64,000 nucleotides of DNA from a bacterium (GTDB lineage Bacteria > Actinomycetota > Thermoleophilia > RBG-16-64-13). Every line of letters starts with the position of its first letter. Within the stretch, counting starts at the first letter, position 1. Below are positions 6,610 to 43,637 of this stretch, piece by piece. Under the pieces are notes generated by a model. The model was not told the DNA's origin. It worked only from the letters and a program-made list of their open reading frames with translations, and ran no database searches. The stretch spans positions 7,075-71,074 of the forward strand of contig JAZDLO010000058.1 of assembly GCA_043801935.1 (NCBI GenBank). Reading direction: 5' to 3'. Made by a program: the position numbers and the translations under genes.

Positions 6610-8382
6610 ATGCAGGGGATGATCACGGATTATGACGTCCCGATCCTCATGCGGGACGGTGTCAAGCTCGTTGTGGACGTGTACCGCCCCGATGCCCCGG
6701 GCAGGTACCCGGTCCTCTACGCCTCCGGTCCCCACAACAAGGACCTGCAGCGCCCGGAGATCGGCGAGAATCTGAAAGCCGCGCAGCCGGCCTGGTCGAC
6801 CGTGTGGTTCGGTGTGCTCGAAGCAGGCGACAGCAAGCGTTTCGTGTCGAACGGATACGTCCACGTGATAGGGCAGATCCGGGGGGGACACAAGTCGGAG
6901 GGTGTCCCCGGCCAGGGTGACTGGTGGGACGAATACGACACCATCGACTGGATAACGGCTCAGCCGTGGTGTGACGGCAACGTCGGCATGGTGGGCCTTT
7001 CCGGCTTCGCCGGGCAGCAGTGGAAGGCGGCGACTCAGCAGCACCCGGCCCTCAAGGCCATCTTTCCCTTCGATGCAACCGGCGTCTATGGGGGACCGCG
7101 GGGCTTTCGTGAAGCCAATCCCGGGGGTGTCATCGGGACCATGTTCTACCACCTCGGGCTCTTCAACAGCATGCATATGGAGTTGGGCACGCCGCCGGAA
7201 CTGCCACCGGAGGCGGAAGCCGCCTGGCAAGCGGCGATGTCCGACCCCGACTATATGATGTACGTCAACCTGTACAACATCCTGACGATGAGGGGTCAGC
7301 GGGACCCCGGCGTGTTCTACGACCTAATCTTTCCCTACGAAGGTCCGGACGTGGTGGCGCAGAGCGAGCAGCGGCTCGGGAAGATCGAGGTGCCTTTCTA
7401 CACCGGCGCGTTCGAAGGCGCCTACACCTACAAGATGCATTGGCAGGGCGCTCAACACTATTTCCAGGACATCGACACCCCCCATAAGAAGCTGCTCTTC
7501 ACGCCGCCGGCTCATGCCGAGCGGCCCTTCCACGAGTGGCACGACGAGATCCTGCGCTGGTACGACTACTGGCTCAAAGGCATCGACACCGGCATCATGG
7601 ACGAGCCGCCGGTGAAGTACTGGGTCATGGGAGCCAACACCTGGCGCACGGGCGACGATTGGCCTTTGCCAGAAACGGACTGGATCAAGTATTACCTGCA
7701 CAGTTGGGAGAAGCTCGGTCCCCAGCCCCACCTGTCGGAGAGCCGCACTTTCGTCAACGAGCCTCCCGACGCCTTTGTGCAGATGCCGCCCACTCAGACC
7801 AACAAGATCGAACGCCTGCGCTACATGACCGACCCCTTACCGGAAGACCTGCTCGTGGTCGGGCCGATCTCGCTCACGCTCTACGGGTCCATCGATGAAA
7901 CCGACACCAACTGGATAGTGATCCTCAAAGACGTGGGCCCGGATGTGTCCGTGCAGACCGCCCGCCAGGGCGAGCGCTCGGTGCCGGATGATCTGCCCGA
8001 ACGCGAGCTGACTCGAGGGTGGCTCAAGGCGTCCCGCCGGGCGATCGATCCGGAACGTTCCCGGCCATGGAAGCCGTGGCACTATCTGACCGCAGATAGG
8101 ATCCAGCCGGTCGTCCCCGGAGAGATCAACGAGTACCGAATCGAGATCCTCTCCACGTGCAACCTGTTCAAGGCCGGGCACCGGATCTGTCTGGATATCA
8201 GCAGCCTCGACTTGGCCGAGGGTGTGGCTGGGGAGACCACCGTGGAGTACATCGCGGCCCACGTGTGCAGCAGCAAGACGGTGCTCCACAAGGTCTACCA
8301 CAACGCCCAATACCCATCGCACCTGTTGTTACCGGTAATCCCAAAGAACACAGCAAAAGGGGGGGCTCAGCAATGGCGGTAG
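6610..8382 (+). CDS. CocE/NonD family (S15 X-Pro dipeptidyl-peptidase-like) hydrolase
   Basis: ATG 6610 lies 9 nt after GGGAGG. Supporting motifs: ITDYDVPILMRDGVKLVVDVYRPDAPGRYPVLY, the nucleophile-elbow region MVGLSGFAGQQW, and a C-terminal jelly-roll-like region. Confidence 0.85.
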   Translation: MQGMITDYDVPILMRDGVKLVVDVYRPDAPGRYPVLYASGPHNKDLQRPEIGENLKAAQPAWSTVWFGVLEAGDSKRFVSNGYVHVIGQIRGGHKSEGVPGQGDWWDEYDTIDWITAQPWCDGNVGMVGLSGFAGQQWKAATQQHPALKAIFPFDATGVYGGPRGFREANPGGVIGTMFYHLGLFNSMHMELGTPPELPPEAEAAWQAAMSDPDYMMYVNLYNILTMRGQRDPGVFYDLIFPYEGPDVVAQSEQRLGKIEVPFYTGAFEGAYTYKMHWQGAQHYFQDIDTPHKKLLFTPPAHAERPFHEWHDEILRWYDYWLKGIDTGIMDEPPVKYWVMGANTWRTGDDWPLPETDWIKYYLHSWEKLGPQPHLSESRTFVNEPPDAFVQMPPTQTNKIERLRYMTDPLPEDLLVVGPISLTLYGSIDETDTNWIVILKDVGPDVSVQTARQGERSVPDDLPERELTRGWLKASRRAIDPERSRPWKPWHYLTADRIQPVVPGEINEYRIEILSTCNLFKAGHRICLDISSLDLAEGVAGETTVEYIAAHVCSSKTVLHKVYHNAQYPSHLLLPVIPKNTAKGGAQQWR

Positions 8383-11018
8383 ATCGCACCGACGCGCATT
8401 TGCGGATCAAAGACAAAACGGTGCTAAAGACGCTCAACCAGCACTCTTTCGCTCAGGGTGGCGAAATAGCAGACGTGGACGTCAAGGACGGGAAGATCGT
8501 CAGGATACGGCCCCATCATCACGATGAGAGATACACAAAGAAAGAGTTGGGGCAATACACGCTGGAGAAAGATGGAATCACGTACCAGACGCCTCTCAAA
8601 GGTCTGGTCGCTCCATATCAGGTCGCCTACAAGAAGCGGGTCTACTCTCCCAACCGTATCAAGTACCCCCTCAAGCGGGTGGACTGGGACCCCAAAGGTG
8701 AACGAAATCCCCAAAACCGGGGCAAGAGCAAGTACGTCAGGATCTCTTGGGATGAAGCCGTCACCATGATCGCCGACGAGATCAGGCGCATCCACAAGGA
8801 ATATGGACCCCTCGGCCTGCTGGCGCACGGTGATGGGCACGGGGAGACCAAGACCATCCACGGGACTCACGCTGTGCAGATGGATTTGCTGAGCATGATG
8901 GGTGGCTACACTCAGGCGCTCAGGAACCCCGACAGCTGGGAAGGTTGGTACTGGGGAACCAAGCATGTTTGGGGCAATGGGGAGAACGGCCTCTGTCTAC
9001 CCGCCGACAACATGATGAACGACGTCACCCAGCACACGGAGATGATCGTGCACATCGGCGCCGACTTGGAGACGACCCCTTGGGGGTTCGCCGGGCAGTT
9101 CGCCAGCGGTGTCCTGTACTACTGGTCCAAGCTCGGTAAACAGCAGGTCTTCGTGTCTCCCGATCTCAACTACTCCGGTGCGGTCCACGCCGACAAGTGG
9201 ATACCGGTGCTGCCCAATACCGACGCGGCTCTGCATCTCGCCATCGCCTATGTGTGGATGACCGAGGGCACCTACGACAAGGAATACGTCGCCACCCACG
9301 TGGTGGGCTTCGACAAGTTCGAAGACTACGTCCTTGGGCGAGAAGACGGGGTGGCAAAGACCCCTGCGTGGGCTTCCGAAAAATGTGGCATCCCTGAATG
9401 GACGATCAAGGCGCTGGCCCGAGAATGGGCGGCCAAGCCCACCTGCACCATGCACTTCTACGGTGGGTCGTACATCCGGGGTCCCTACTCCCACGAACCC
9501 GCCCGGCTGGAGGCTTGTCTCCTGGGCATGCAAGGACTGGGCAAACCGGGCGTCCACCAGTACTACAAGATGGGGGGCGACGACCGCTGGATGAACGACA
9601 CCCCTCGTACCTTGCGAAGGATCGACGACCTGAAGTTTCAGATGGCCATCTGGCCGGGGGCCAGGCAGACCTTCATCTCGTCCAAACAGGTCATTCCCAA
9701 GACCCAGTTGAGCCAGGCTATCTTGGGCCCTCCGCTGAGTTGGTGGGGCAGCACCCAACAGTTCTCGGGCATCCATGAACAGTTCGAGAAATACACTTAT
9801 CCCATACCGGAGGAAGAGGGCGGCACCGAGATCCACATGATATGGATGGACAACCCTTGTCGCACGACCTGCTGGAACGACGGTTTCATGACGGTGGAGG
9901 CCTTCCGGAGCCCTAAGATCGAGACTATCGTGGTGCAGCACCCCTGGTTGGAGAACGACACGATCCTCGCCGACATCATCTTGCCCATCAACACCAAGTT
10001 GGAAGAAGAAGACATCGGCAGGCTGTCCGCCGGCGGCAGATCGGTCCACGGTTGCCTGCTTGAGAGACAAGCCATAGAACCGATCGGGGAGTCGCTGAGC
10101 GACTACGAAGCTGTGGCCGAAGTGGCCAAGAAATTCGGTCTCTACGATGAGTTCACGGGCGGCATGACGGTCGAAGAAAAGATCGAGCTTGGCTATGACA
10201 AGCTGGAAATAAGTGATCTGATCAGCTGGGAGGACTTCCAGGACAAGCAGTACTACATCGTCCCCACCCACCCGGAATGGGAAAAGGTCCCGCCCGGCTT
10301 GAGGGAGTTTTACGAAGACCCGGAGAAGCACCCCCTCGAGACTCCGACGGGCAAGCTCGAGTTCTATTCGCAGAGGCTCGCTGATCACTTCCCGGACGAC
10401 AACGTGAGAGGACCCCTTCCCAAGTGGATCGAAAAGGACGACTTCCACGACGAGAGACTCTCCAGCACCCGGGCCAAGAAGTATCCGCTTCTCCTGATGA
10501 GCAACCACGGCCGTTGGAGAACCCACGCCCAGAACGAAGACATCACCTGGACCCGGGAGATCATGACCCACAAGGTCAAGGGCTGGGACGGCTACATGTA
10601 CGAACCGGTCTGGATCAACCCGAAGGATGCGGAAGCGCGAGGCATCAAGGACGGGGACATCGTCAAGATGTTCAACGAGAGAGGGACCGTTCTCGGCGGG
10701 GCCCTGGTTTGGGAGAGGATCATCCCCGGCGCCGTATCCAGCGATCACGGGGCCCGGGTGGACATGATCTGTATTGACGGGCCCGACGGATACCTCGATC
10801 GAGGCGGGGCTAACAACCTCATCTCCCCGCTGAACGGCATCTCTAAGAACTGCTGGGGCATGGCTACAAGTGGCTTCCTGGTGGACGTACAGAAAGTGAG
10901 CATGGCCGAGATGGAAGCGTGGCGGGAGAAGTATCCAGAGGCTTTCGCCCGTAAGTACGATCCGGCTTCAGGTCTTCCGCTTGAGGCTTGGGTCTTAGAA
11001 GAGGGAGAGAGCGCATGA
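8373..11018 (+). CDS. Molybdopterin (bis-MGD) oxidoreductase large subunit, AthL-like, clade A (copy A1)
   Basis: 881 aa from ATG 8373, after AAAGGGGGGG; it overlaps the hydrolase stop by 10 nt. No Tat motif and no N-terminal Cys cluster. Motifs: DWDPKGERNPQNRG, ISWDEA, NPDSWEGWYWG, DAEARGIKDGDIVKMFNERG. The layout matches the P. acidigallici transhydroxylase large subunit as I recall it. Confidence 0.9.
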   Translation: MAVDRTDAHLRIKDKTVLKTLNQHSFAQGGEIADVDVKDGKIVRIRPHHHDERYTKKELGQYTLEKDGITYQTPLKGLVAPYQVAYKKRVYSPNRIKYPLKRVDWDPKGERNPQNRGKSKYVRISWDEAVTMIADEIRRIHKEYGPLGLLAHGDGHGETKTIHGTHAVQMDLLSMMGGYTQALRNPDSWEGWYWGTKHVWGNGENGLCLPADNMMNDVTQHTEMIVHIGADLETTPWGFAGQFASGVLYYWSKLGKQQVFVSPDLNYSGAVHADKWIPVLPNTDAALHLAIAYVWMTEGTYDKEYVATHVVGFDKFEDYVLGREDGVAKTPAWASEKCGIPEWTIKALAREWAAKPTCTMHFYGGSYIRGPYSHEPARLEACLLGMQGLGKPGVHQYYKMGGDDRWMNDTPRTLRRIDDLKFQMAIWPGARQTFISSKQVIPKTQLSQAILGPPLSWWGSTQQFSGIHEQFEKYTYPIPEEEGGTEIHMIWMDNPCRTTCWNDGFMTVEAFRSPKIETIVVQHPWLENDTILADIILPINTKLEEEDIGRLSAGGRSVHGCLLERQAIEPIGESLSDYEAVAEVAKKFGLYDEFTGGMTVEEKIELGYDKLEISDLISWEDFQDKQYYIVPTHPEWEKVPPGLREFYEDPEKHPLETPTGKLEFYSQRLADHFPDDNVRGPLPKWIEKDDFHDERLSSTRAKKYPLLLMSNHGRWRTHAQNEDITWTREIMTHKVKGWDGYMYEPVWINPKDAEARGIKDGDIVKMFNERGTVLGGALVWERIIPGAVSSDHGARVDMICIDGPDGYLDRGGANNLISPLNGISKNCWGMATSGFLVDVQKVSMAEMEAWREKYPEAFARKYDPASGLPLEAWVLEEGESA

Positions 11019-11845
11019 AGGTCTTCGTCTTCGACACCTCGATCTGCAACGGCTGCTACTGCTGCCAGATTGCCTGCAAGGATGAGCATTGCGCCAACGA
11101 TTGGACCCCGTACGCAAGACCCCAGCCCGACACTGGTCAGTTCTGGCTCAAGCTGACCGAGCATGTCCGGGGCACAGTGCCCAAGGTAAAAATGCACTAC
11201 CTCCCCTCTCTCTGCAACCACTGCGACGACGCGGCGTGCCTGGCCGCTTGCCCGGTGGAAGGGGCCATCTACAAGCGTGATGACGGCCTCGTCATCATCG
11301 ACCCGGAGAAATGCACGGGCTGCACCCTGTGCGTGAGTGCATGCCCCTACCAAGCCATATACATGAACGAGGGGCTGAACCTCGCCCAGAAGTGCACCGG
11401 ATGTGCCCATCTCCTGGACGCCGGTTGGAAAGAGCCCCGTTGTGTGGATGTCTGTCCCACCCTGGCCCTCAGGTTCATGGAAGAGTCCGAGGCCCAGGAA
11501 CTGATCGCCGACGCTGAGGTACTCCATCCTGAGTATGAGCAGAAGCCTCGGGTCTACTATCTGAACGTTCCCAAGAGGTTCATCGGAGGTACAGTCTATG
11601 ACCCGGTCGAGAAGGAAGTGGTCATCGGGGCGACTTGCACCCTGACCGGAGCCGGAGTCAATCGAACGGAGATCACCAACGGCTTTGGGGACTTCTGGTT
11701 CGAGGACCTGGATGTGGGCACTTATTCAGTGGAGATAGAGGCCGACCGATTCTCCAGCAAGACCTTTCTGGACGTGAGCACCGAGAAGGACGTGAACTTG
11801 GGGGATATCCCTCTTGAGGACGGCTGCCATACCGCGAAGGTATAG
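11015..11845 (+). CDS. 3x[4Fe-4S] ferredoxin-type small subunit with C-terminal Ig/beta-barrel domain, BthL-like (copy B1)
   Basis: ATGA start/stop overlap with A1. Cys motifs: CNGCYCCQIACKDEHC, CNHCDDAACLAACP, CTGCTLCVSACP, CTGCAHLLD...PRCVDVCP. The tail GFGDFWFEDLDVGTYSVEIEAD is a carboxypeptidase-regulatory-like fold. Confidence 0.9.
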   Translation: MKVFVFDTSICNGCYCCQIACKDEHCANDWTPYARPQPDTGQFWLKLTEHVRGTVPKVKMHYLPSLCNHCDDAACLAACPVEGAIYKRDDGLVIIDPEKCTGCTLCVSACPYQAIYMNEGLNLAQKCTGCAHLLDAGWKEPRCVDVCPTLALRFMEESEAQELIADAEVLHPEYEQKPRVYYLNVPKRFIGGTVYDPVEKEVVIGATCTLTGAGVNRTEITNGFGDFWFEDLDVGTYSVEIEADRFSSKTFLDVSTEKDVNLGDIPLEDGCHTAKV

Positions 11846-11881
11846 GACGGTAAAGTGCTTTCGAGGACGAAGGGGGGAACG

Positions 11882-13309
11882 ATGTTCAAGAAAGAAGCCA
11901 AGACCTACAGCCGGCGCGAGTTCCTGAAGATCGCAGGTATCGCCGGCGCGGCGGCGAGCGTGGGTGCCGGTTTGGGCGGGCTGGTCGCCGCTTGTGGCGA
12001 GGAAACCGGGACCGCCACCACCGCCGGAGCCACGACTACCACCGCTGGTGCCACCACTACCGCAACAGCGGGGAGCACCACTACGGTCAGCACCGGCCCG
12101 GAGGCCGGGCGCGACCTCAAGATCGGCGTGATCTCCCCGGAGACGGGGGCCCTCGCGCCATTCGCCGTCGGAGTCAACTGGACCATAGGACGAGTCGATG
12201 AGTACCTCAAAGATGGGATCGTCTGCAGCGACGGGAAGCAGCGCAAGCTCCAGCTCATCAAGAGAGACACCCAGTCCGACTCCAACCGGTCGGCTCAGGT
12301 CACTGCCGATCTCATCCAATTGGATAGTGTAGACATCGTACTGAGCTCCGGCGCCCCCGACACCACCAGCCCGTCGGCCGACACGTGCGAGGCTCTGGGC
12401 TGTCCCAGCCTGAGTAGCGCCGGCCCCTGGCAGGCGTTCTTTTTCGACCGCAAGCCGCCGGCAGAGGGGTTCAAATGGACCTACGGCGTGCTGCTCGGCT
12501 CCGAACAGACCATCCTCTGTTTTTCCGAGATGTTCGATCAGATCCCCAACAACAAAGTGGTCGCCATGCTGTTCGCCAACGACGCAGATGCGGCCGGGTG
12601 GATGGCGGAGAACGCAGCCCCCGCTGTGTTCGAGGCCAAGGGATACACTCTGGTGGTGCCCACCTGGTACACGCCCGGCGCTGAAGACTTTACCGCTCAG
12701 ATCTCCGAGTTCAAGAAGGCGGGATGCGAGATCCTCTGCGGCACCAACACTCCGCCGGATTTCACCAACTTCTGGAAGCAGAGCATCCAGCAAGGTTTCC
12801 ACCCCAAGCTGGCCAGCAGCGGCAAGGCACTCCTGTTCCCCGAGACCTTGAATGCCATCGGGGAAGTCGGCCAGGGTCTCCTAGGCGAGGTCGGGTGGCA
12901 CCGCACCTTCCCCTACCTTGACACCCTCACTGGCCAGACCGCGGAAGAACTGGCCCAGGACTTCGAGACCAAGACGGGCATGGTGGCGTGTACGAACAGC
13001 ACCGGCATGTATCAGCTGGCCGAGTGGGCGGTCGATGTGTTAAAGCGGGCCGCCAGCCCGGAAGACAAAGAGAGCGTCGTCGAGGCCATTAGGACCACCA
13101 ACATGACCACCACCAATGGTCCCCTCGACTTCACCCAGCCGATGGACATGATGGGCTGGCATCCGGTGCCCAACTGTGTCAAGTCGGTCTTGTGCGGAGG
13201 CCAGTGGGTCAAGGGCGAGAAGTACCCCTTCGAAGTGGCCATCTGCAGCAACGCCCAGGCTCCAGACGTCAAGGTGCAGGACAAGGTGCAGCCGATGGCC
13301 TACTCGTAG
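11882..13309 (+). CDS. LivJ-type substrate-binding lipoprotein with Tat-like signal (SBP2)
   Basis: ATG 11882 follows AAGGGGGGAAC. SRREFLK twin-arginine motif, lipobox LVAAC, then a Thr/Gly/Ala linker (GEETGTATTAGATTTTAGATTTATAGSTTT). The body is paralogous to the other three SBPs. Confidence 0.9.
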   Translation: MFKKEAKTYSRREFLKIAGIAGAAASVGAGLGGLVAACGEETGTATTAGATTTTAGATTTATAGSTTTVSTGPEAGRDLKIGVISPETGALAPFAVGVNWTIGRVDEYLKDGIVCSDGKQRKLQLIKRDTQSDSNRSAQVTADLIQLDSVDIVLSSGAPDTTSPSADTCEALGCPSLSSAGPWQAFFFDRKPPAEGFKWTYGVLLGSEQTILCFSEMFDQIPNNKVVAMLFANDADAAGWMAENAAPAVFEAKGYTLVVPTWYTPGAEDFTAQISEFKKAGCEILCGTNTPPDFTNFWKQSIQQGFHPKLASSGKALLFPETLNAIGEVGQGLLGEVGWHRTFPYLDTLTGQTAEELAQDFETKTGMVACTNSTGMYQLAEWAVDVLKRAASPEDKESVVEAIRTTNMTTTNGPLDFTQPMDMMGWHPVPNCVKSVLCGGQWVKGEKYPFEVAICSNAQAPDVKVQDKVQPMAYS

Positions 13310-13501: not shown

Positions 13502-16015
13502 ATGACAGAGCAAGTCTTTATGAACGCGACGATCGCCGGTCCCGTGTCAGTGTATGTCGAGGATGGCAGGATAGTCAGAATCAGGCCGTTGCAGGTCGAC
13601 GATGAAGATTTGAAACCTTGGATGATCACAGATCCCAAGGGCACTGAGTACTCGCCACCCAAGAAGTTGAAAGTCGGGCCTTACGTGATGGCCGCTCGAA
13701 CGCAGATCTACTCTGAAGACCGGCTTCTATATCCCATGAAGAGGGTGGACTTCGATCCGAATGGCGAAAGACACCCCGAAAACCGCGGTAAGTCCGGCTA
13801 CGAACGCATAAGCTGGGAAGAAGCCTTGGAAGTCGTGGCCGGCGAGATGAAGCGTCTGAGGACCGCCCACGGCCCGGCGGCGATCGGCGCCCTTGATCAG
13901 GACCATCACAATTGGGGGATCGTGGGATACAGATTCGGGCCCTATTTCAGGTTCTTCAACACGATCGGATTCACCGAAGTACTGCACAACCCCGATAGTT
14001 GGGAAGGCTGGCATTGGGGTGCCCCCCATGTGTATGGATACTGGTGGCAGCTGGGCGTACCAGAGCAGTTCGATCTCCTGGAAGACACGATGAGACACGC
14101 AGAGAACATCGTGTATTGGTCCATAGACCCGGATTTTGTGCGAGCTGCTTACAACGGCATGGAATCCGCCATTTGGTTCGAGTGGATGAGGGACGCCGGA
14201 AAGCAACAGATATTCATCGACCCGTTCTGCAACTACAGTGCTTCGAAGATCGCAGACAAATGGATAGCGCCGAGACCGGGTACCGATGCGGCTCTGGCGC
14301 TCGCAATCGCGAGTGTATGGATCAGGGAAGGCACCTACGATGAGGGTTACCTCGCCGACCGGACGGTGGGTTTCGGGGAGTTCGAAAGGTATGTCATCGG
14401 TGAGGAGGACGGGGTGGCAAAGACCCCCGCGTGGGCTGCAGAGATCACCGGAATCCCGGCCAGAACGATCGAGGCTCTGGCCCGAGAATGGGCCGCGAAG
14501 AAGACGACAGTGATGGGATGCGGCATGGGTGGTGCGTGCCGCACGGCCTACGGCCACGAATACGCCCGCATAGTAGTGCTGTTGCAGGCGATGCAGGGAC
14601 TGGGAAAGCCGGGGGTCAATCTGTGGGGCAATGCCACCGGAGCACCGGCGGACTATGATGTCTTCTTTCCGGGTTACGCCGACCTAGACGCCATGATGAG
14701 CTTTTCCCGGGCCGCCAGAAAGAAGGCGATCAATCCGGTGGAACAGCGCCTGTATCGTCTTCTTTTGGCTGATTCCATTCTGAGTCCTCCGGTCGAATGG
14801 ACGGGAGAGGGCTTCTGCGGCCAGAAACTGGAGCAGCAATTTGCCAAGTTCGTCTATCCGATGCCGGGGTACCCGGAGATCAAGATGCTTTACCGTTACG
14901 GTGCTGCCTCGCTGGGGACCATGACCGAGGGAAACAAACTGGTGCAGATGTTCCAGAGCCCCAAACTGGAGACGGTGGTGGTGCAGGACTGCTGGTGGCA
15001 CACCGAGACAAGATTCGCCGATGTGATCCTGCCGGCATGCACCAACTTCGAACGCAACGATATCGCTGAGTGGGGAGAAGCGGGTGGATACCTCAAGTGG
15101 GGAACCACAGGGTCCAACTATCGCGTTATCACCTTCCAGCAGAAATGCATCGAGCCGCTCGGCGAATCGAGATCGGACTACTGGATATTCTCCCAACTCG
15201 CGAAGCGATTGGGAGTCTGGGAGGATTTCTCGGATGGTGGTAGGTCTGAAGAAGATTGGATCAAGGCGTACTTCGATATCAGCGACCTGCCGAAGCACAT
15301 CTCATGGGAAGAGTTCACGCAGAAGGGCTACTACGTCGTGCCTGCTCCGGATCCGTACAAATCCACGCCTGCCTTTCGCTGGTTCTATGAAGGCAGGGAG
15401 TGCGACACGCCGGACCTGATGAATCCCAACAAGGGCACCGACAGAGCCCACGAGCTGGCCACCCCCAGCGGAAAGATTGAGTTCGTATCCGGGAGCCTCA
15501 CCAGATTCACGCCGCACGACCGGGAAAGGCCGCCGGTGCCTCACTACATTCCTAGCTGGGAAGGCCACGGATCGGAACTGGCGACACGGTATCCGCTGCA
15601 GATGATATCGCCGCATCCCCGATACTCTTTCCACAGCCATTTCGACAAGAAGGGCTCTTGGATCAGTGACATTCCCGACCATCGCAAGCTCATCAACGGC
15701 TACTACTACTGGACGGCGAGGATCAGTCCGGCGGACGCCGCCGCACGCGGCATACGAGACGGTGACGTGGTTCGACTCTACAACGATCGCGGCTCAGTCC
15801 TCTGTGCTGCGACGATCACAGAACGGATCAAACCCGGGGTGATACACAGTTTCTGCTCCAGCGGAAGATACGACCCCGTGGAGCCGGGAAAACCCTATTC
15901 ACTGGACCGGGGAGGGTGCGTCAACCTGCTCACCTCCGATAGGCTGATGTCTCTGAATGCGCCCGGGATGGCGCCGAATTCCTGTCTTGTCGAGATCGAA
16001 AGATGGGAGGTGTGA
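13502..16015 (+). CDS. Molybdopterin oxidoreductase large subunit, AthL-like, clade B (copy A2)
   Basis: 837 aa; AAGGGAG SD. Motifs: NATIAGPVSVYVEDGRIVRIRPL, FDPNGERHPENRG, DQDHHNWGIVGYR, NPDSWEGWHWG, FFPGYAD, ILPACTNFERNDI. No Tat signal and no FeS motif. Confidence 0.9.
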   Translation: MTEQVFMNATIAGPVSVYVEDGRIVRIRPLQVDDEDLKPWMITDPKGTEYSPPKKLKVGPYVMAARTQIYSEDRLLYPMKRVDFDPNGERHPENRGKSGYERISWEEALEVVAGEMKRLRTAHGPAAIGALDQDHHNWGIVGYRFGPYFRFFNTIGFTEVLHNPDSWEGWHWGAPHVYGYWWQLGVPEQFDLLEDTMRHAENIVYWSIDPDFVRAAYNGMESAIWFEWMRDAGKQQIFIDPFCNYSASKIADKWIAPRPGTDAALALAIASVWIREGTYDEGYLADRTVGFGEFERYVIGEEDGVAKTPAWAAEITGIPARTIEALAREWAAKKTTVMGCGMGGACRTAYGHEYARIVVLLQAMQGLGKPGVNLWGNATGAPADYDVFFPGYADLDAMMSFSRAARKKAINPVEQRLYRLLLADSILSPPVEWTGEGFCGQKLEQQFAKFVYPMPGYPEIKMLYRYGAASLGTMTEGNKLVQMFQSPKLETVVVQDCWWHTETRFADVILPACTNFERNDIAEWGEAGGYLKWGTTGSNYRVITFQQKCIEPLGESRSDYWIFSQLAKRLGVWEDFSDGGRSEEDWIKAYFDISDLPKHISWEEFTQKGYYVVPAPDPYKSTPAFRWFYEGRECDTPDLMNPNKGTDRAHELATPSGKIEFVSGSLTRFTPHDRERPPVPHYIPSWEGHGSELATRYPLQMISPHPRYSFHSHFDKKGSWISDIPDHRKLINGYYYWTARISPADAAARGIRDGDVVRLYNDRGSVLCAATITERIKPGVIHSFCSSGRYDPVEPGKPYSLDRGGCVNLLTSDRLMSLNAPGMAPNSCLVEIERWEV

Positions 16016-28629: not shown

Positions 28630-28675
28630 ATAGACGGGATAAGCGAGGCTTGCCAGCGTCGCAGTCCCTGCTGAT

Positions 28676-29575: not shown

Positions 29576-29657
29576 CTATACATCATCGTAATACTTTGCG
29601 CCGGCCATGAAAAGTTGCGTCGAAGTGCTTCCCCAGTTGCTGAGTCGGACTATGATG
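29576..29657 (+). promoter_or_regulatory. Conserved 82-nt operator/promoter element, copy b (lysR/etfB divergent region)
   Basis: CTATACATCATCGTAATACTTTGCGCCGGCCATGAAAAGTTGCGTCGAAGTGCTTCCCCAGTTGCTGAGTCGGACTATGATG. It contains the dyad ACTTT-N13-AAAGT (29593-29615) and a TATGAT hexamer (29651-29656) about 70 nt upstream of the etfB GTG. Confidence 0.6.
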
Positions 29658-29723
29658 TAGCAGCCGGCCCAGCCTAAGGGTGCGGCGCGGTCGAAGGTCG
29701 CCTTGCGAAGGAAGGGAAGACCA

Positions 29724-30500: not shown

Positions 30501-30570
30501 CGGCGCCTCAGCGCTGGTGGTATCTGCTTTCGTGGCCGACTGAAGACCGAAGGGTAGGGGAGATAGATCA

Positions 30571-31560: not shown

Positions 31561-31570
31561 GACCGACGCC

Positions 31571-33643: not shown

Positions 33644-33647
33644 ACGT

Positions 33648-36581: not shown

Positions 36582-36765
36582 TATCCCAATATCCAGCTTT
36601 GGCACGCCAGGGATCCCCCCAGGGCCTCTCCACCAGAACGCGCCCTTCTCTGGTAGGCTTTGTTCAAGCCGTCAGGACGGTGTTCCAGGCTATTGAAGAG
36701 GGGTATGACCCACCGCTGAACATATGAGACGGGGCGACGGCCTGTTTCCAGGGAGGGATACGTTC

Positions 36766-38712
36766 ATGCAGACCAAGTTTCCCAAGTTGTTCGAGCCGGG
36801 ATGCGTAAGGACCGTCAGGCTCAAGAACCGGGTGATCAAGGCCCCTCAGCACACGGGTCTTGCCAACCCGGACGGTTCCATCACCGAAAGGATGCTCCGC
36901 TACTACAAAGAGGTGGCTTTGGGTGGAGTCGGCATGGTGATCGTCGAGTACGCCTGGGTCGATGACGATGCGAGCAGAGCATCGCCCTGTCAACTCGGCA
37001 TCGCCCGCATGGATCACATCCCCGGGCTCTCGTTGCTCGCACAGACCATCCAAGCCAACGGGGCGAAGGCGGCGATCCAGATATCGCACGCGGGCCGGCA
37101 GAGGTTCACGCTTGAAAGGCCGAAGGCCCCGTCGACCGTTCCTTGGGAGGAACTCTATGCCGCCGGTTGCCCGGCCCCAGAGGCGTTGACCTTCGATGAG
37201 ATACTGCAGATCGTCAAGTCGTTTGGACAGGCGGCGAAGAGGGCACAGATCGCGGATTTCGACATGGTCGAGATACACGCTTGTCACGGCTATCTCATCT
37301 CGAATTTCCTCTCGCCCCGGACGAACAAACGGACCGACTGGTACGGCGGCCCGCTGGAAAACCGCATGCGTTTCTTGCTGAAAGTCATCGTTGAGATCAG
37401 GGACCAAGTCGGACCTGAATACCCCGTATGTGTGAGGCTGAGCGGCACCGATTACGAGCCGGACGGTACAACGATCGAAGAGACGGCGGAGTTGTGCGGG
37501 CGGCTCGAAGCGATGGGGGTCGCCGCCATCCACATGTCGGGAGGGAACCACCACCAGACCATCCATGAAGTCAGTCCGATGGGCATGTCCCTAGCGCACA
37601 ATGTCTGGGCGGCGGAGGCGGTGAAGAAGAAGGTCAAGATACCGGTCGTCGCTTCGGGGTCCATCAACCTTCCCGAGCTGGCAGAACATATCCTGGCCGA
37701 AGGCAAAGGGGACTTCATCGGATTGGGGAGACCTCTTTGGGCCGACGCGGAATGGCCTCTCAAGGCGAGGGAAGGCAGACCGGAAGACATCAGACCTTGT
37801 ATCCGTTGTAACGACGGTTGCCTGGCGAGAGGCGACCACCAGGCTAAGACCGTCTCCTGCTCGGTCAATGTCGCGGTCTGCCGGGAAGACGAGTTCAAGA
37901 TCACCAAAGCAGAACGCTCCAGGAATGTCGCCGTGATCGGCGGAGGGCCGGCGGGCATGGAGGCGGCGAGAGTATGTGCGCTGAAAGGTCATCAGGTGAC
38001 CCTGTACGAGAAGCGGGAACTGGGAGGCGCGCTGCTCGAAGCCGCGATCCCGGATTTCAAAGCCCCCGACCTGCGGCCTCTCATCGACTACTTGAGGACA
38101 CAGATAGAGAAGCTCCAGATCAAGATCGTCGGGGAAGAAGCCACGTCGAAGGCCATCAAGAATGGCGGATACGACGCGGTGATCGTCGCTACGGGCGCCA
38201 CCCCCTTGGCCTTGGAAGACGTCCAAGGGATCGCCCACGAGAAAGTGACCAGCGCTTCGCAAGTGCTTCATGGTGAAGCAACGCTAGGGACCAAGATCGC
38301 CGTCATCGGCGGCGGGATCGTGGGGACAGAGGTCGGTCTCTTTTTGGCCGAACGGGGCAAAGAAGTCGTGTTCGTCGAGATGCTCGACACCTTCATGAAC
38401 AACATCACCTTTGACGAGCAGTTGGTCTACGAAGAACGCTTCAAGGATCTCAACGTCTCGATCCATACCGGCAAGCGCCTGGAAAGCGTGTCGGATGACG
38501 GCGTCACAGTGGTCGACCGATTCGGGGCGAAGACCACGATCACCGTTGATTCTGTGGTGCTGGCTGCCGGTTACACGCCTAATCGAGAGCTCATCGACGC
38601 TTTGAGCAATGATCCTGACCTCCAGGTGTTTGAAGCGGGCGACTGTGTCAGACCGCGAAAGATCTTCGATGCGATCCGCGACGGACATCTTGCCGCCAAG
38701 CTGCTGAATTAG
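36766..38712 (+). CDS. FadH/enoate-reductase-type flavoenzyme (OYE-like FMN domain, [4Fe-4S], FAD/NAD(P) domain), copy 1
   Basis: ATG 36766 follows GGGAGGGA. Motifs: HACHGYLISNFLSPRTNKRTDWYGG, CIRCNDGC...C, VAVIGGGPAGMEAA, IAVIGGGIVGTEV. Confidence 0.88.
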   Translation: MQTKFPKLFEPGCVRTVRLKNRVIKAPQHTGLANPDGSITERMLRYYKEVALGGVGMVIVEYAWVDDDASRASPCQLGIARMDHIPGLSLLAQTIQANGAKAAIQISHAGRQRFTLERPKAPSTVPWEELYAAGCPAPEALTFDEILQIVKSFGQAAKRAQIADFDMVEIHACHGYLISNFLSPRTNKRTDWYGGPLENRMRFLLKVIVEIRDQVGPEYPVCVRLSGTDYEPDGTTIEETAELCGRLEAMGVAAIHMSGGNHHQTIHEVSPMGMSLAHNVWAAEAVKKKVKIPVVASGSINLPELAEHILAEGKGDFIGLGRPLWADAEWPLKAREGRPEDIRPCIRCNDGCLARGDHQAKTVSCSVNVAVCREDEFKITKAERSRNVAVIGGGPAGMEAARVCALKGHQVTLYEKRELGGALLEAAIPDFKAPDLRPLIDYLRTQIEKLQIKIVGEEATSKAIKNGGYDAVIVATGATPLALEDVQGIAHEKVTSASQVLHGEATLGTKIAVIGGGIVGTEVGLFLAERGKEVVFVEMLDTFMNNITFDEQLVYEERFKDLNVSIHTGKRLESVSDDGVTVVDRFGAKTTITVDSVVLAAGYTPNRELIDALSNDPDLQVFEAGDCVRPRKIFDAIRDGHLAAKLLN

Positions 38713-38790
38713 TGTCGGGGGACGATCCACAGCTGTCTGCGAGAGCTCACTTTTCTCTGATACGCTGTGCCCGAACTCGGGCGGCGCTCG

Positions 38791-38823
38791 CGGGGCCCTT
38801 GTTGGTCACGGGGCCCTTGTTGG
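38791..38823. repeat. Tandem direct repeat CGGGGCCCTTGTTGG x2 (3-nt spacer) upstream of the second flavoenzyme gene
   Basis: 38791-38805 and 38809-38823 are identical 15-mers. AGCTCACTT also occurs on both sides of them, at about 38745 and 38843. Confidence 0.7.
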
Positions 38824-38872
38824 CCGCCGGGCGTTGTGTGGAAGCTCACTTCGACGAGCATGAGAGGCGCTG

Positions 38873-40948
38873 ATGGCACCTTCCCAGTACGAACACCTTT
38901 TTTCGCCGCTCAGCATCGGCAAGGTGCAGCTGAGGAACCGGATCGTCAAGAGCGCGGCGCAGACCTATTTCTTTGAGCTAGGCGAGCATCGCGTCGGCGG
39001 CATAGCCAAGGCTTTCTACGGAGCGGTGGCACGAGGTGGGGTGGGCCTGATCATCGTCGAGACTCCCGCCATGGAGTGGCCCCTGGCAGAGACAGGCGAC
39101 CGGCGCTTTCGGGTCGACGACGACAAATACATCAAAGAGATCGGCGAGCTTGCCGCCGAGATCCACCGGCACCGCTGCCCAGCCTTCGTCCAGTTCTACC
39201 ATCGCGGCCCGTGGGGGGGTCCCTATCACACCGTGGCCAAGAGAGTGGCCGCGTCGCCTGTGACCTTCCCTTCGATGTTCGACGTCCACGAGGAGGAGCC
39301 GCCGCACGCTTTGACCATCGCCGAGATCGAGGAGCTGGTCGAGCGGTACGCCGGCGGGGCCCTCCGGATAGCCGAGGCCGGATTCGACGGCATCGAGGTC
39401 CACGCCGGCGCCGATCATCTCTTCGATACCTTCTTGTCCCGCTTCTGGAACAGGCGAGACGACATCTACGGCCCTCAGAGCATGGAGAACCGGACTCGCT
39501 TCGTGCTCGCAGTCATCAAGGAGATCAAGAAGCGGGTGGGGCAGGATTTCCCCGTACAGGTGTTCATGAACGGCGTCGAGGCCGGCGTGGGTGAGCTGGG
39601 GCTCAGCGTGGAGGAAAACAAGACACTGGCCCGGATATACGAGGAAGCCGGAGCCGACTCCTTGCACGTGAGATCTCATTGGGTCGGCCAGCACCAGGGA
39701 TCGTATCTGAGCGATACCCTCTTCTATCCCGAGCCGCTCATTCCCCTGAGTGAGTTTCCCAAGGAGATGGACTGGAGCCACCATGGATTTCTGTGCAACG
39801 TGCCGCTGGCGGCGGCCATCAAGCGGGTGGTCTCCATCCCCGTGATGACAGTGTGCGGGTTCGACGCCGATTCGGGAGAAAAGGTCTTGCGGGAGGGCCA
39901 AGCCGATCTGATCGGCTTCAACCGGCGCATCTTCGCCGATCCTGAGTACCCCAACAAGGTCCGCGCGGGCCGGTTTGACGACATTCAGCCCTGCACCCAC
40001 TGCGGCCACTGCAGCAGCACCTACAACGAGGTGAGGAAGTGCCGCGTCAACGCCTGCTTCGGCACCGACCAATACGATGTGGCGCCGCTAGGCACGAAGA
40101 AGCGGGTCCTGGTGGTGGGCGGCGGCCCGGCCGGCATGCAGGCTGCCCGGGTAGCTGCGCTCCGGGGGCATGAGGTCACCCTGTGGGAGAAGGGCCGGTA
40201 CCTGGGCGGTTCGGTGCCCCTGGCGGCCATGGTCAAGGGGGTTCAACTGGAAGAGCTCCCCGATCTCCTTCGCTTCTTCAGAAAGCAGATGGAGAAACTG
40301 GGCGTCGATGTCAGGCTGGGCAAGGAGTTCGATGCGTCCATCATCGCCCAAGCCAAGCCTGACGTGGTGATCCTGGCTGCCGGGGGTAATCCGCTGGTAC
40401 CGGACGTCCCGGGGATCGATGGGCGAAACGTCATCAAGAGCAGCGACTTGTACGGAAGGCTGCGGTTCTATCTGGGGATCTTCGGACCCAAGAGGCTCCG
40501 GGGCCTGACCAGATTCTGGATGCCGGTGGGCCAGAAGGTGGTGATCATCGGCGGCGCTATCCACGGGTGCCAGTTGGGGGAATTCCTGGTCAAGCGGGGC
40601 AGGCAGGTGACGATCGTCGACACCGAGGGAGAGCTCGGCAAAGGAATGTACCCGGAGAGAAGGACCCGCCTCTTCTACTGGTTCGACAAGAAGGGCGTCA
40701 CCCGAATAGAGAGCGCGAAGCTCGTGGAGATCACGGAGAAAGGACTGTCTATCGTCACCAAAGAGGGAGTGGCGCGATTCCTCGAGGCGGACAGCATCAT
40801 ATGTGCCCTACCTTTCGTGCCGAACTCGGAACTGCTCGAGAGCTTGAAGGGCAAAGTGCCGGAGGTCTACCCTATTGGAGACTGCGAGGACCCCGGTCTC
40901 ATACGGGACGCCACCGCGGCCGGCTGGCGGGTGGCCAATGCGATCTAG
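38873..40948 (+). CDS. FadH/enoate-reductase-type flavoenzyme, copy 2
   Basis: Motifs: HAGADHLFDTFLSRFWNRRDDIYGP, CTHCGHC...C, VLVVGGGPAGMQAA, VVIIGGAIHGCQ. 691 aa. Confidence 0.88.
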   Translation: MAPSQYEHLFSPLSIGKVQLRNRIVKSAAQTYFFELGEHRVGGIAKAFYGAVARGGVGLIIVETPAMEWPLAETGDRRFRVDDDKYIKEIGELAAEIHRHRCPAFVQFYHRGPWGGPYHTVAKRVAASPVTFPSMFDVHEEEPPHALTIAEIEELVERYAGGALRIAEAGFDGIEVHAGADHLFDTFLSRFWNRRDDIYGPQSMENRTRFVLAVIKEIKKRVGQDFPVQVFMNGVEAGVGELGLSVEENKTLARIYEEAGADSLHVRSHWVGQHQGSYLSDTLFYPEPLIPLSEFPKEMDWSHHGFLCNVPLAAAIKRVVSIPVMTVCGFDADSGEKVLREGQADLIGFNRRIFADPEYPNKVRAGRFDDIQPCTHCGHCSSTYNEVRKCRVNACFGTDQYDVAPLGTKKRVLVVGGGPAGMQAARVAALRGHEVTLWEKGRYLGGSVPLAAMVKGVQLEELPDLLRFFRKQMEKLGVDVRLGKEFDASIIAQAKPDVVILAAGGNPLVPDVPGIDGRNVIKSSDLYGRLRFYLGIFGPKRLRGLTRFWMPVGQKVVIIGGAIHGCQLGEFLVKRGRQVTIVDTEGELGKGMYPERRTRLFYWFDKKGVTRIESAKLVEITEKGLSIVTKEGVARFLEADSIICALPFVPNSELLESLKGKVPEVYPIGDCEDPGLIRDATAAGWRVANAI

Positions 40949-41021: not shown

Positions 41022-43637
41022 GTGGCAGCTGACAAAGGCAACGAAAAGACGGTCATCAAAGCCCTCGGCCTGAGCGGGGGTATCTTTGGGGCCGCGCCCT
41101 GTGCCGTGGACGTGAAAGACGGACGGATAATCAGGGTCAGGCCGCTGCATTATGACTCCAAGTACGATTCCAGCGAATTCAATGCCTGGAAGATCGAAAA
41201 GGACGGAAAGACTCTGAAACCGCTGATGAAGGCGGTCCCTTCTCCGTTCAGCCTGGCTTACAAGAAGAGAGCCTATTCCCCCAACCGGGTGAAGTATCCG
41301 CTGAAGAGGGTCGATTGGGACCCCAACGGCGAGCGCAACCCGCAGAACCGGGGCAAGAGCAAGTTCGTCAGGATCTCCTGGGACGAAGCTACCGATCTCA
41401 TCGCCGGCGAGATCAGAAGAGTGCATAAAGAATATGGACCGCTGGGCATCCTGGTCCAGGGCGACGGGCACGGGGAATGCAAGATGGTCCATGCGCCGCA
41501 CGGCTGCCCGACACTGCTCCTCGACAAGATGGGGGGGTTCACCCAGCAGGTCAGGAACCCGGACAGCTGGGAAGGGTGGTACTGGGGGGCCAAACACGTG
41601 TGGGGATCTGGTCTGATCGGCATGATGGCCCCCGCGGACAACATCGTGAAGGACATCTGCGAGAACAGCGACATGGTGGTGGTCTGGGGAGGCGACCCGG
41701 AGACGACACCCTGGGGATTCAGGGGGCAGTTCGCCAGTCGCCTCTGTTTTTTCTGGTCGGAGATCGGGATCAAACAAGTCTATATCTGTCCCGACCTGAA
41801 TTACGCCGCAGCCATTCACGCCGACAAATGGATCCCGATCCTCCCCAACACCGATGCTGCCCTTCAGCTGGCCATCATCTACATGTGGATCAAGGAGGGG
41901 ACGTACGACAAAGAGTATGTCGAGACCCATACCGTCGGTTTTGACAAAGTCAGAGCCTATGTCATGGGGGATGAGGATGGAGTTCCCAAGACGCCGGAGT
42001 GGGCTTCCGAGAAGTGCGGGGTTCCGGAGTGGACCATCAAGGCCCTGGCACGGGATTGGGCGAAGAAGATCGTCACGATAGGTCACTACTTCGGAGGGGG
42101 CATGGCCCGGGGGCCCTGGTCCCACGAGCCGGCGCGCTTGGAAGTGATCCTGCTGGGGATGCAGGGATTGGGCAAACCGGGTGTCCACCAGGCCCAGATC
42201 GCGTACCAAGGGATGCCCAGAAACATCATGGCCCGCGGCACCGGCCATATGGGGATGTTCCAGAATCTCGTGAACTCGCCTGCGGGGGACCGGTTGCTAA
42301 AGCCCCACAAGACCACGCCCACCGCCTGGGGCAAGCAGCTCCTCCCCAAGACCCTGATCGAGGAAGGCATCAAGAAGCCGCCGGTCCATTTCTGGGGGAC
42401 CGGAGGTCACGAGGTGCCGACGACGGATCAGTTCGTCAAGTACACCTATCCGATCCCGAAGGAAGACGGCGGGACGGAGATACACATGATCTGGACCGAC
42501 ACTCCTTGCCGCACCACCTGCTGGAACTGCGGCAACGATGTCGCCGATACCATGAGGCATCCGAAGATCGAGTGCATCGTGGCCCAGCACCCCTGGCTGG
42601 AGAACGACGCGCTGTTCTCCGACATCATCCTGCCGACCAACACCACTCTGGAGGTGGACGACATCTCCCCCTGCATCAGGGATGGAGATAGCTTCCAGAG
42701 CGTGTTGCTCATGAACCGGGCGATCAACCCCATCGGCGAATCCAAGAGCGACTACGAGGCGGTCTTGGAGGTCGCCAAAAAGCTCGGCAAGTACGACGAT
42801 GTCACCGAGGGCATGACGAATGAGGAACTGGTCAGGGCGGTCTTCGACGGTCTGGGGTTCGATGAACACATCAGCTGGGAGGAATTCCAGGAAAAGGGCT
42901 ACTGGGTGATCCCCGTGGATCCGGAATGGGAGAAGATCCCGGCAGGCCTCTACGGATTCTACGAGGATCCCGAAGCCAACCCGTTGCCCACGCCTACCGG
43001 AAAGCTCGAGTTCTATTCCGAGAGCCTTGCCCAGAACTTCCCCACCGACAACGAGAGACCGCCTATCCCCAAATGGATCGAGAAGAGCATCACCCATGAC
43101 GAGAGGATCACGAGCAAGCGGGCGGCCGTCTATCCTCTGCTCCTCATGTCCAACCACGGGAGATGGAGGGTCCACGCCCAATGTGACGACATCCCCTGGA
43201 CCCGAGAGGCTCCGACCTGCAAGGTCAAAGGCTTCGACGGCTACATGTACGAGCCTTGCTGGATGAACCCGAAGGACGCTGAGGCGAGGGGCATCAAGCA
43301 CGGCGACATCGTCAAGGTGTTCAACGAGAGGGGCGGCGTTCTCTGCGGCGCGCTGGTGTTCGAAAGGATCCGGCCCGGCGTGATCTCCATCGACCACGGA
43401 GCCAGGGCGGACTTCATCATTCCCGCCAAGCTGGACCGCGGGGGCGCGATCAACACCATCACTCCAGAGGGGCTGACTTCCAAGCATTGTGGCGGGCAGG
43501 CGACCAGCGGGTTCTTGGCTGAAGTGGAGCGAGTCTCCCTGAAGCAGATGGACGAATGGATGACAGATCATCCGGAGGCGTTCGAGAGGGAGTACGATCC
43601 GGCCTCGGGACTACGCTTCAACGCCTGGGTCGAGTGA
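41022..43637 (+). CDS. Molybdopterin oxidoreductase large subunit, AthL-like, clade A (copy A4), no adjacent small subunit
   Basis: 871 aa; GTG start after GAAGGGG. Closest to A1 (DWDPNGERNPQNRGKSKFVRISWDEA, QGDGHGECK, NPDSWEGWYWG, DAEARGIKHGDIVKVFNERG). The next gene, 43 nt on, is a TetR regulator. Confidence 0.9.
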   Translation: MAADKGNEKTVIKALGLSGGIFGAAPCAVDVKDGRIIRVRPLHYDSKYDSSEFNAWKIEKDGKTLKPLMKAVPSPFSLAYKKRAYSPNRVKYPLKRVDWDPNGERNPQNRGKSKFVRISWDEATDLIAGEIRRVHKEYGPLGILVQGDGHGECKMVHAPHGCPTLLLDKMGGFTQQVRNPDSWEGWYWGAKHVWGSGLIGMMAPADNIVKDICENSDMVVVWGGDPETTPWGFRGQFASRLCFFWSEIGIKQVYICPDLNYAAAIHADKWIPILPNTDAALQLAIIYMWIKEGTYDKEYVETHTVGFDKVRAYVMGDEDGVPKTPEWASEKCGVPEWTIKALARDWAKKIVTIGHYFGGGMARGPWSHEPARLEVILLGMQGLGKPGVHQAQIAYQGMPRNIMARGTGHMGMFQNLVNSPAGDRLLKPHKTTPTAWGKQLLPKTLIEEGIKKPPVHFWGTGGHEVPTTDQFVKYTYPIPKEDGGTEIHMIWTDTPCRTTCWNCGNDVADTMRHPKIECIVAQHPWLENDALFSDIILPTNTTLEVDDISPCIRDGDSFQSVLLMNRAINPIGESKSDYEAVLEVAKKLGKYDDVTEGMTNEELVRAVFDGLGFDEHISWEEFQEKGYWVIPVDPEWEKIPAGLYGFYEDPEANPLPTPTGKLEFYSESLAQNFPTDNERPPIPKWIEKSITHDERITSKRAAVYPLLLMSNHGRWRVHAQCDDIPWTREAPTCKVKGFDGYMYEPCWMNPKDAEARGIKHGDIVKVFNERGGVLCGALVFERIRPGVISIDHGARADFIIPAKLDRGGAINTITPEGLTSKHCGGQATSGFLAEVERVSLKQMDEWMTDHPEAFEREYDPASGLRFNAWVE

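Follow-up and report, generated by a model that had tools for sequence, protein, structure and literature searches.

The locus described here raises the question of whether five related molybdoenzyme genes, found together in one stretch of bacterial DNA, all serve the chemistry of their crystallised relative. The stretch (hereafter, the window) comprises 64,000 nt from a bacterium of the Thermoleophilia lineage RBG-16-64-13 (assembly GCA_043801935.1, contig JAZDLO010000058.1, positions 7,075 to 71,074 of the forward strand) and has a G+C content of 61.6%. Pfam analysis identified five proteins with an architecture consisting of an AhtL-like N-terminal domain, MopB and Molydop_binding. An initial annotation had sorted these large (alpha) subunits into two clades, A and B, and had proposed that clade A keeps molybdenum (Mo) coordination while having lost part of the substrate-binding residue set of the pyrogallol-phloroglucinol transhydroxylase found in Pelobacter acidigallici. 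The clade-A members are A1 (8373-11018, + strand, 881 residues) and A2 (41022-43637, + strand, 871 residues), both predicted Mo-bisPGD (bis-pyranopterin guanine dinucleotide) subunits, and the clade-B members are B1 (13502-16015, + strand), B2 (24617-27124, - strand) and B3 (52234-54825, + strand). From the sequence comparisons given below, we consider the chances slightly better than even that A1, with its small (beta) subunit (10988-11845, + strand), and A2 represent an orthologous family of their own, which is widespread but as yet uncharacterised and is probably a two-electron oxidoreductase acting on a different substrate.

The five paralogs were aligned with the crystallised enzyme (PDB 4v4c, chain A) using MAFFT, and the numbering used throughout is that of 4v4c_A, counted on its alignment with B1. 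By this count H144 and R153 lie in the block SSHHMWGNVGYR, D174 and S175 in NPDSWEGW, Y404 in FPGY and Y560 in SGYIP, and the numbering that the initial annotation had given for these six positions was therefore correct. The roles of the residues in the crystallised enzyme are reportedly those described by Messerschmidt and co-workers in 2004, and Tyr404 is said to be the proposed base for the co-substrate. NPDSWEGW was found in all five paralogs. B1, B2 and B3 also retained the (S/D)HHxWGxxGYR block, FPGY and the GY of the 560 loop (B1, for example, reads DHHNWGIVGYR and NPDSWEGWHW), while A1 and A2 possessed a GDGHGE(T/C)K-type block and no FPGY, in agreement with the initial annotation. Specifically, A1 carries the signature GDGHGETKTIHGTH (8829-8870, + strand) in place of SSHHMWGNVGYRH at positions 141-154 of the crystallised enzyme, and the corresponding signature of A2 is GDGHGECKMVHAPH (41460-41501, + strand). 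The alignment placed the equivalents of the Mo ligand Ser175 and of Asp174 in the segment RNPDSWEGWYW of A1 (8922-8954, + strand), and the Mo-ligand Ser and its adjacent Asp in the same segment of A2 (41553-41585, + strand).

Beyond these segments, the Y560 site falls within a 9-residue deletion in both A1 and A2, and position 153 is Thr in A1 and Pro in A2. In total, H145, W147, Y152, R153, W354, Y404 and the Y560 loop of the crystallised pocket were missing from clade A. The proposed absence of part of the substrate-binding set was thus upheld for R153 and the FPGY Tyr, neither of which has an equivalent, and extends to Y560, but it does not hold for His144, with which the His of GDGHGE aligns. 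A1 and A2 also share a C-terminal extension of ~30 residues (...YPEAF.R.YDPASGL...W in A1, 10896-10994, + strand; 43533-43634, + strand, in A2) that is found neither in the crystallised enzyme nor in clade B, and several of its positions were invariant in an alignment of 27 clade-A sequences. Profile-profile comparison with hhalign, in which a clade-B profile was matched to the profile of the 27 clade-A sequences, returned the same register as MAFFT: H144 matched His, R153 matched Pro/Thr, FPGY was gapped and the 560 loop was deleted. The initial annotation had allowed that R153 and Y404 equivalents might sit at shifted positions in clade A; none was found there by MAFFT or hhalign. When invariance was demanded in both clades, only 10 scattered positions remained.

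A2 and A1, used in turn as queries, each drew thousands of matches, of which the best 120 per query were taken (67-88% identity for A2 and 59-94% for A1). These homologs came from Chloroflexota, Dehalococcoidales, Deltaproteobacteria, Clostridiales, Thermoleophilia and others, and informative names were almost absent from their records. Among the matches listed, the closest A1 ortholog was P0121, with 94% identity and likewise 881 residues. Conservation was counted in 230 clade-A homologs aligned to the crystallised enzyme. D142, G143, H144, H154 and R171 were each present in 230 of 230, as were D174, S175, W176, E177, G178 and W179; the proposal that clade A keeps Mo coordination was therefore borne out, with the whole of DSWEGW invariant. 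Slightly lower counts were obtained for E146 (229), G145 (223), K148 (218), Y180 (217) and H151 (201). Position 147 was Cys in 127 homologs (A2 type) and Thr in 86 (A1 type), and position 153 was Pro in 184, Ala in 18 and Thr in 15. The 560 loop was deleted in 229 of the 230, FPGY occurred in none, and the region corresponding to FPGY was gapped and variable in length within clade A in both the MAFFT and the hhalign alignments.

The family signature of clade A can thus be written as (G/A)DGHGE(C/T)KxxHxxH...RN(P/A)DSWEGWYW. To judge from these counts, the replacement signature is under strong purifying selection, and because the motif that stands in place of the missing residues is itself conserved, a distinct selected function is favored over relaxation. 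The pocket-lining segments have therefore been remodelled in the manner that had been proposed, with a different but conserved motif in place, and we infer from this pattern that the chemistry of clade A is different as well.

A scan of species-representative genomes (one genome per species) showed that at least 590 loci encode a relative, in at least four phyla (Actinomycetota, Chloroflexota, Desulfobacterota and Bacillota). The best 80 of these loci, ranked by similarity to A2, were retained; their products were 62-80% identical to A2 and none was near-identical. They included Actinomycetota, metagenome-assembled genomes (MAGs) of Thermoleophilia/Gaiellales, Dehalococcoidia, Desulfobacterales, Peptococcaceae, Oscillospiraceae and the isolate Geomobilimonas luticola. 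Judged by the identity of neighboring genes (77-87%), the nearest loci were those of two uncultured Actinomycetes MAGs (L002 and L003). Exact-sequence look-ups of A2 and B1 gave no match, and the genome of the window is not part of the scanned species-representative set; its host is probably an anaerobic actinomycetotal lineage that has yet to be sampled.

By BLASTP, A1 and A2 were each other's closest paralogs, as initially annotated, with 58.7% identity. B1 and B2 shared 59.2%, B3 was the paralog closest to the crystallised enzyme (60.6%, compared with 46-49% for B1 and B2), and identities between clade A and clade B were 36-41%. Clade A was 33-37% identical to the crystallised enzyme by MAFFT and BLASTP (33.6-35.4% by BLASTP, with A1 at 33.6%). 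An exhaustive search of 50%-identity representatives yielded 750 clusters at E values up to 1e-30, and a bootstrapped neighbor-joining tree was built from the full-length representatives and rooted on DmsA-type sequences checked with NCBIfam. The tree recovered the two clades of large subunit that had been drawn by eye. Core clade A had a bootstrap value of 100, and clade B, which contains B1, B2, B3, the crystallised enzyme and a further representative, P0278, had one of 97. The node uniting the two larger groups had a value of 91. According to this tree, clade A is the sister of the pyrogallol transhydroxylase/resorcinol hydroxylase clade, in the serine-ligated branch of the dimethyl sulfoxide (DMSO) reductase (MopB) superfamily. 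Around core clade A the tree places numerous deeper lineages, whose proteins are 900-1000 residues long and vary in their active-site segments, the Mo-ligand segment included. Most of these deeper relatives (P0233-P0260) have a twin-arginine translocation (Tat) signal (SRRDFL), to which several add a lipobox-like Cys together with a Thr/Val-rich linker; they make up a large exported radiation around the cytoplasmic clade A. Inspection of the N-termini of the alpha subunits revealed neither the RR motif of a Tat signal nor the CxxCxxxC motif of an FS0 cluster.

The word "lost" in the initial annotation is a different matter. The residues are missing, but on the direction of change two sets of sequences in the tree disagree. 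BisC, TorA and DmsA-type outgroups have neither FPGY nor the 560 loop, which favors a gain in clade B. On the other hand, P0269, P0275 and P0309, which branch outside of clades A and B, do show a PGY motif, and their loop is long and includes an aromatic residue, implying a loss in clade A. At the depth of a neighbor-joining tree, both loss in clade A and gain in clade B are possible.

The placement of resorcinol hydroxylase was examined using the first 400 residues of its large subunit, RhL (A0N0U2), which are printed in the supplement of PMC7327174. This fragment contains the motifs SHHQWGNIGYY and NPDSWEGWYW, and BLAST matched it to P0278 with 63% identity, to B3 with 60%, to the crystallised enzyme with 58%, to B2 with 51% and to B1 with 48%; A1 and A2 were not among its 15 best matches. 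P0278, the closest full-length relative of RhL in the set used, retains FPGY and the Y560 loop. As far as the fragment allows, RhL is a member of clade B, and both sequenced characterised enzymes would then belong to that clade. Clade B is not uniform at position 153: the crystallised enzyme and B1-B3 have Arg there, RhL has Tyr, and clade-B partners elsewhere have Lys or Trp. R153 thus looks like a specificity position rather than a family constant. The residues around 144-152, Y404 and Y560 appear to be common to clade B.

A second line of evidence comes from the beta subunits. The subunit encoded after A1 (Fer4_11 plus CarboxypepD_reg) is homologous over its full length to 4v4c_B, its best PDB match (E = 4.6e-51). 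It possesses four [4Fe-4S] Cys motifs, and beta subunits of the clade-A type have all 16 Cys of the four, whereas the crystallised and clade-B beta subunits have three motifs. The latter include those encoded after B1 (16019-16849, + strand) and B2 (23739-24575, - strand), both consisting of Fer4_11 and a CarboxypepD_reg-like barrel. Alignment with 4v4c_B and clade-B beta subunits located the extra Cys of A1 beta at positions 88, 109, 112 and 115, corresponding to the fourth Cys of motif II (C..C....C...CP) and the first three of motif III (C..C..C...CP). Cys residues were counted per aligned column, as simple regular expressions gave a misleading, mixed picture. Among 65 beta subunits adjoining clade-A genes, the four extra Cys were present in 65, 65, 63 and 65, respectively, while they were absent from 4v4c_B and from all 13 true clade-B beta subunits. 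A fourteenth beta subunit of clade-B type did have them, but this one (L017) lies beside a Psr-like MopB and not beside a clade-B alpha subunit. Beta genes spot-checked on other contigs agreed with these counts.

The four extra Cys presumably bind one additional [4Fe-4S] cluster, following the ligand pattern usual in four-cluster ferredoxin subunits such as those of formate dehydrogenase-N and polysulfide reductase, and we take the cluster missing from clade B to be the distal one that contacts an external redox partner. In the beta subunit adjoining P0278 (L085, 6121-6960), most Cys of motifs I, III and IV are gone as well, leaving room for approximately one cluster, which suggests a progressive loss of iron-sulfur clusters within clade B. 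Judged by its Cys ligands, clade A still has an apparently unbroken electron wire, and clade B looks like a lineage that is shedding one.

We also modeled A2 with AlphaFold2, using the 27-sequence alignment. The model had a mean predicted local distance difference test (pLDDT) score of 72.9 and a predicted template modeling (pTM) score of 0.77, and its top PDB match was 4v4c_A (E = 1.2e-60, TM 0.75, 32% identity), followed by DorA, MtsZ and TorA. At the level of the model, this confirms that A2 has the fold of 4v4c_A.

Genomic context was tabulated for 78 loci out of the 80 ranked by similarity to A2, a set in which contexts of the A1 type are under-sampled. Beta adjacency was counted in those 72 clade-A genes whose downstream flank measured 900 nt or more. 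A beta gene adjoined the clade-A alpha gene in 60 of them, directly downstream in 58 and upstream in two, and the remaining 12 resemble A2 in having no adjacent beta gene. Five of these 12 loci (L030, L034, L039, L042 and L056) have a second clade-A gene with a beta gene nearby; two clade-A genes were present in 10 of the 78 loci overall. In the window itself, five alpha genes are accompanied by three beta genes. No beta gene adjoins A2, which is directly followed by a TetR regulator gene, and no small-subunit gene is adjacent to B3. The first start codon of the A1 beta open reading frame (ORF), at 10988, lies within the end of A1, with an overlap of 31 nt.

A clade-B alpha gene with its own beta gene was found in 11 of the 78 clade-A loci, as well as in the window and in L080/L081 and L083, and those clade-B partners for which the motif was recovered retain SHHxWGxxGY. 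The frequent adjacency of clade-A and clade-B alpha-beta pairs suggests that the two have non-redundant roles. The idea that a CocE/NonD hydrolase or an OYE/FadH-type flavoenzyme might be a constant neighbor of clade A did not survive the count, these enzymes being present in only 3 and 4 of the 78 loci, respectively; the companion that does hold across the family is the beta subunit of clade-A type. Recurrent neighbors were instead PAS/GAF sensors (14 loci), TRAP solute-binding proteins (10), IclR regulators (10), MFS transporters (9) and sigma-54 activators (7), an assemblage that is typical of inducible catabolism. Housekeeping genes also recurred, namely those for FtsH (13 loci), polyprenyl synthase (8) and Met-tRNA ligase (7), and the representatives of such loci (L037, L043, L054 and others) were MAGs of Dehalococcoidales/Chloroflexi.

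Because the retained loci had been ranked by similarity to A2, contexts of the A1 lineage were sampled separately. In L080 and L081, which encode A1 orthologs with 94% identity, the gene order is S15 hydrolase, A1, beta, a B1-type alpha-beta pair and an OYE/FadH enzyme; the OYE/FadH enzyme is also present in L082, of the same lineage. In the window, the CocE/NonD (S15) hydrolase gene (6601-8382, + strand) is conserved only in the closest A1 orthologs. Its stop codon overlaps the start of A1, which lies 10 nt before the end of the hydrolase gene, suggesting translational coupling. Two OYE/FadH-type iron-sulfur flavoenzymes are encoded upstream of A2 (36724-40948, + strand) and are occasional clade-A neighbors. 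A GlcDEF-like triad comprised of FAD_binding_4, a CCG iron-sulfur protein and FAD_binding_4 (1269-5695, + strand) also occurs beside A1-type pairs in L083 (11692-16050) and L084 (12728-16061) and is not recurrent beside A2-type genes.

If clade A is a two-electron oxidoreductase, its reaction may be pictured as follows. A hydroxyl or oxo oxygen of the substrate would still be bound at Mo, with Asp and His providing acid-base chemistry. The substrate would not be pyrogallol and would probably be more polar, since it would face a pocket with Asp, Glu, Lys, three His and Arg, and a co-substrate mechanism dependent on Tyr404 would not be usable. A net two-electron reaction would be most likely, either a water-dependent hydroxylation or a reductive dehydroxylation/deoxygenation, with electrons passing via a soluble partner; the complete iron-sulfur chain makes a net hydroxylase or dehydroxylase/reductase likelier than a redox-neutral transferase. 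Physiologically, clade A may act alongside clade-B enzymes in the anaerobic catabolism of hydroxylated aromatics. A bolder version, which we would call improbable though worth stating, is that clade A is an anaerobic Mo hydroxylase/dehydroxylase working in tandem with clade B, with electrons carried by the four-cluster beta subunit, and that it perhaps makes or regenerates a co-substrate of the tetrahydroxybenzene type or in some other way uses water to add or remove a hydroxyl group on the ring. If this were true, the series of four clusters in clade A, three in the crystallised enzyme and clade B, and approximately one in the P0278 beta subunit would record how a redox enzyme turned into a redox-neutral transferase, losing its wire step by step.

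Several observations weigh against a catabolic oxidoreductase. The Dehalococcoidia genes beside FtsH, Met-tRNA ligase and polyprenyl synthase do not resemble a catabolic island. As the alpha subunit has no FS0 motif, it is not certain that electrons can pass from beta to Mo. Clade A may have inherited its fourth cluster from an ancestor and kept it without function, and three-cluster clade B may itself include a redox enzyme, resorcinol hydroxylase, in which case cluster number may not track redox function. In the A2 model, the Mo-ligand segment (residues 180-189) had pLDDT values below 50 and confidence was low across much of the C-terminal domain, which makes the model too poor for comparing pockets. 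Lastly, no characterised member of clade A was found in the literature, and the substrate and reaction type are therefore putative.

Four rival explanations were considered, all of which we rank lower than the oxidoreductase. The best of these holds that clade A is a redox-neutral transhydroxylase with a pocket re-tooled for another donor/acceptor pair, such as the hydroxyhydroquinone/tetrahydroxybenzene series that is known physiologically from Pelobacter massiliensis. In its favor, clade A keeps H144, D174 and S175 and, like the crystallised enzyme, is a cytoplasmic alpha-beta enzyme with no FS0, and sequential transhydroxylations would account for the frequent adjacency of clade-B alpha-beta pairs. 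We nevertheless regard it as unlikely. Tyr404, the proposed co-substrate base, is missing along with the whole FPGY segment, the length of that region varies within clade A, and a fourth cluster, shed by clade-B beta subunits, persists in those of clade A.

More doubtful still is a cytoplasmic oxo-transfer reductase that retains the chemistry ancestral to this branch, acts on an S-oxide, N-oxide or similar compound rather than a phenol and receives its electrons via the four-cluster beta subunit. The family does branch beside BisC, TorA, DorA and DmsA-type enzymes, its beta subunit is DmsB-like in having four clusters, and both the housekeeping neighborhoods in Dehalococcoidia and the 62-80% identity across phyla would suit a common, simple substrate. 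However, the AhtL-like domain, the Asp beside Ser in NPDSWEGW and the C-terminal barrel of the beta subunit are held in common with the crystallised transhydroxylase, and the clade-A paralogs in 10 of 78 loci, together with regulators and transporters of the aromatic type, are a better fit to a substrate-diversified catabolism. None of the five paralogs passed any NCBIfam model, and their scores to the models of S- and N-oxide reductases were far under the cut-offs.

That A1 and A2 are redundant pyrogallol-phloroglucinol transhydroxylase isoenzymes, which achieve the same pocket geometry with other residues, is very improbable; the fold is the same, 4v4c_A is the top structural match and some records are annotated as pyrogallol hydroxytransferase, but identity to the crystallised enzyme is only 33-37%, two independent alignments found no equivalents of R153, Y404 and Y560, clade-B copies co-exist in the same operons and the type of beta subunit differs. 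We give hardly any credence to decaying or non-catalytic paralogs, an explanation that might draw on the missing beta neighbor of A2 and the sub-threshold N-terminal domain of A1 (below), because the ORFs of A1 and A2 are intact and of full length, 230 homologs from several phyla show no variation at the Mo ligand and at many further positions, and beta-less alpha genes recur (12 of 72), five of them with a second clade-A gene and a beta gene nearby.

Returning to the window, individual Pfam matches differed between the two clade-A proteins. PF00384 and PF01568 were matched in A1, with PF21423, the AhtL-like first domain, scoring 23.1 bits against a cut-off of 27, and all three were matched in A2, in which PF21423 scored 37.1 bits against the same cut-off. 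In clade B, comparison of B1 with 4v4c_A, the large subunit of pyrogallol hydroxytransferase, gave an E value of 3.2e-256, and the assignment of B2 rests on its Pfam domains, MAFFT and BLASTP. The canonical downstream genes of phloroglucinol degradation encode a cyclase-family dihydrophloroglucinol cyclohydrolase and a beta-keto-acid cleavage lyase (PMC10470551), and neither family was found in the Pfam annotation of the window. A sixth MopB, of an unrelated type with an Fe4S4 domain (46366-48960), is followed by a four-cluster ferredoxin and an NrfD-type membrane subunit in a Psr/Nrf-like arrangement (46366-50535), and an 87% identical homolog is found in the MAG locus L002. Four paralogous solute-binding proteins of the Peripla_BP_6 type, one with a Tat signal, are interspersed among the molybdoenzyme genes (1-1173, 11855-13309, 44402-45886 and 59070-60554). 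Beside B2, the region 27204-35501 encodes an acyl-CoA dehydrogenase, LysR, EtfB, EtfA, a 690-residue HdrD-like CCG protein and a tungsten-type aldehyde:ferredoxin oxidoreductase. The segment from the HdrD-like protein through the B2 beta gene is syntenic with a Thermoleophilia MAG (L007), in which an A2-type alpha-beta pair follows directly.

These results bear on how such genes are read. A survey of the MopB superfamily handled "RhL/PgtL" as one family (PMC10100899), and genome papers, including those on Chloroflexi, Dehalococcoidia and subsurface anaerobes, have labeled family genes as pyrogallol hydroxytransferase and read pyrogallol or tannin fermentation from them (PMC3971608, PMC4959651). 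Among the clade-A proteins that our searches brought up were some from Dehalococcoidia and other Chloroflexota, from Desulfobacterota and from Actinomycetota. As the enzymes that have been characterised differ from clade A in these residues and in beta type, conclusions about metabolism that rely on such genes may be mistaken, and a "pyrogallol hydroxytransferase" gene is not always evidence of pyrogallol metabolism. At the same time, clade A is a target for the discovery of a new anaerobic reaction on hydroxylated aromatics.

Compared with known systems, clade A stands nearest to three groups of enzymes. DorA, TorA, BisC and MtsZ, its next-best relatives in structure and sequence, are like clade A in having a Ser ligand to Mo and in lacking FS0, FPGY and the 560 loop, but they are single-subunit enzymes with no beta, no AhtL-like domain and no Asp beside Ser as in NPDSWEGW. 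The 4v4c enzyme (AthL/PgtL plus BthL) shares with clade A its architecture, fold, Ser175, Asp174, His144 and NPDSWEGW; both are cytoplasmic, have no FS0 motif and have a homologous beta subunit with a C-terminal barrel. The DGHGExKxxHxxH motif, Arg171, the C-terminal extension and the four-motif beta subunit set clade A apart, and clade A is thus a natural comparison for the puzzle of why a redox-neutral transhydroxylase carries iron-sulfur clusters. RhL, of the same family, differs from clade A in having the SHHQWGNIGYY block in place of GDGHGE..., and is like it in having Tyr at position 180 (NPDSWEGWYW). Resorcinol hydroxylase of Azoarcus/Aromatoleum anaerobius is a net hydroxylase, indicating that this family is capable of redox hydroxylation as well as transhydroxylation.

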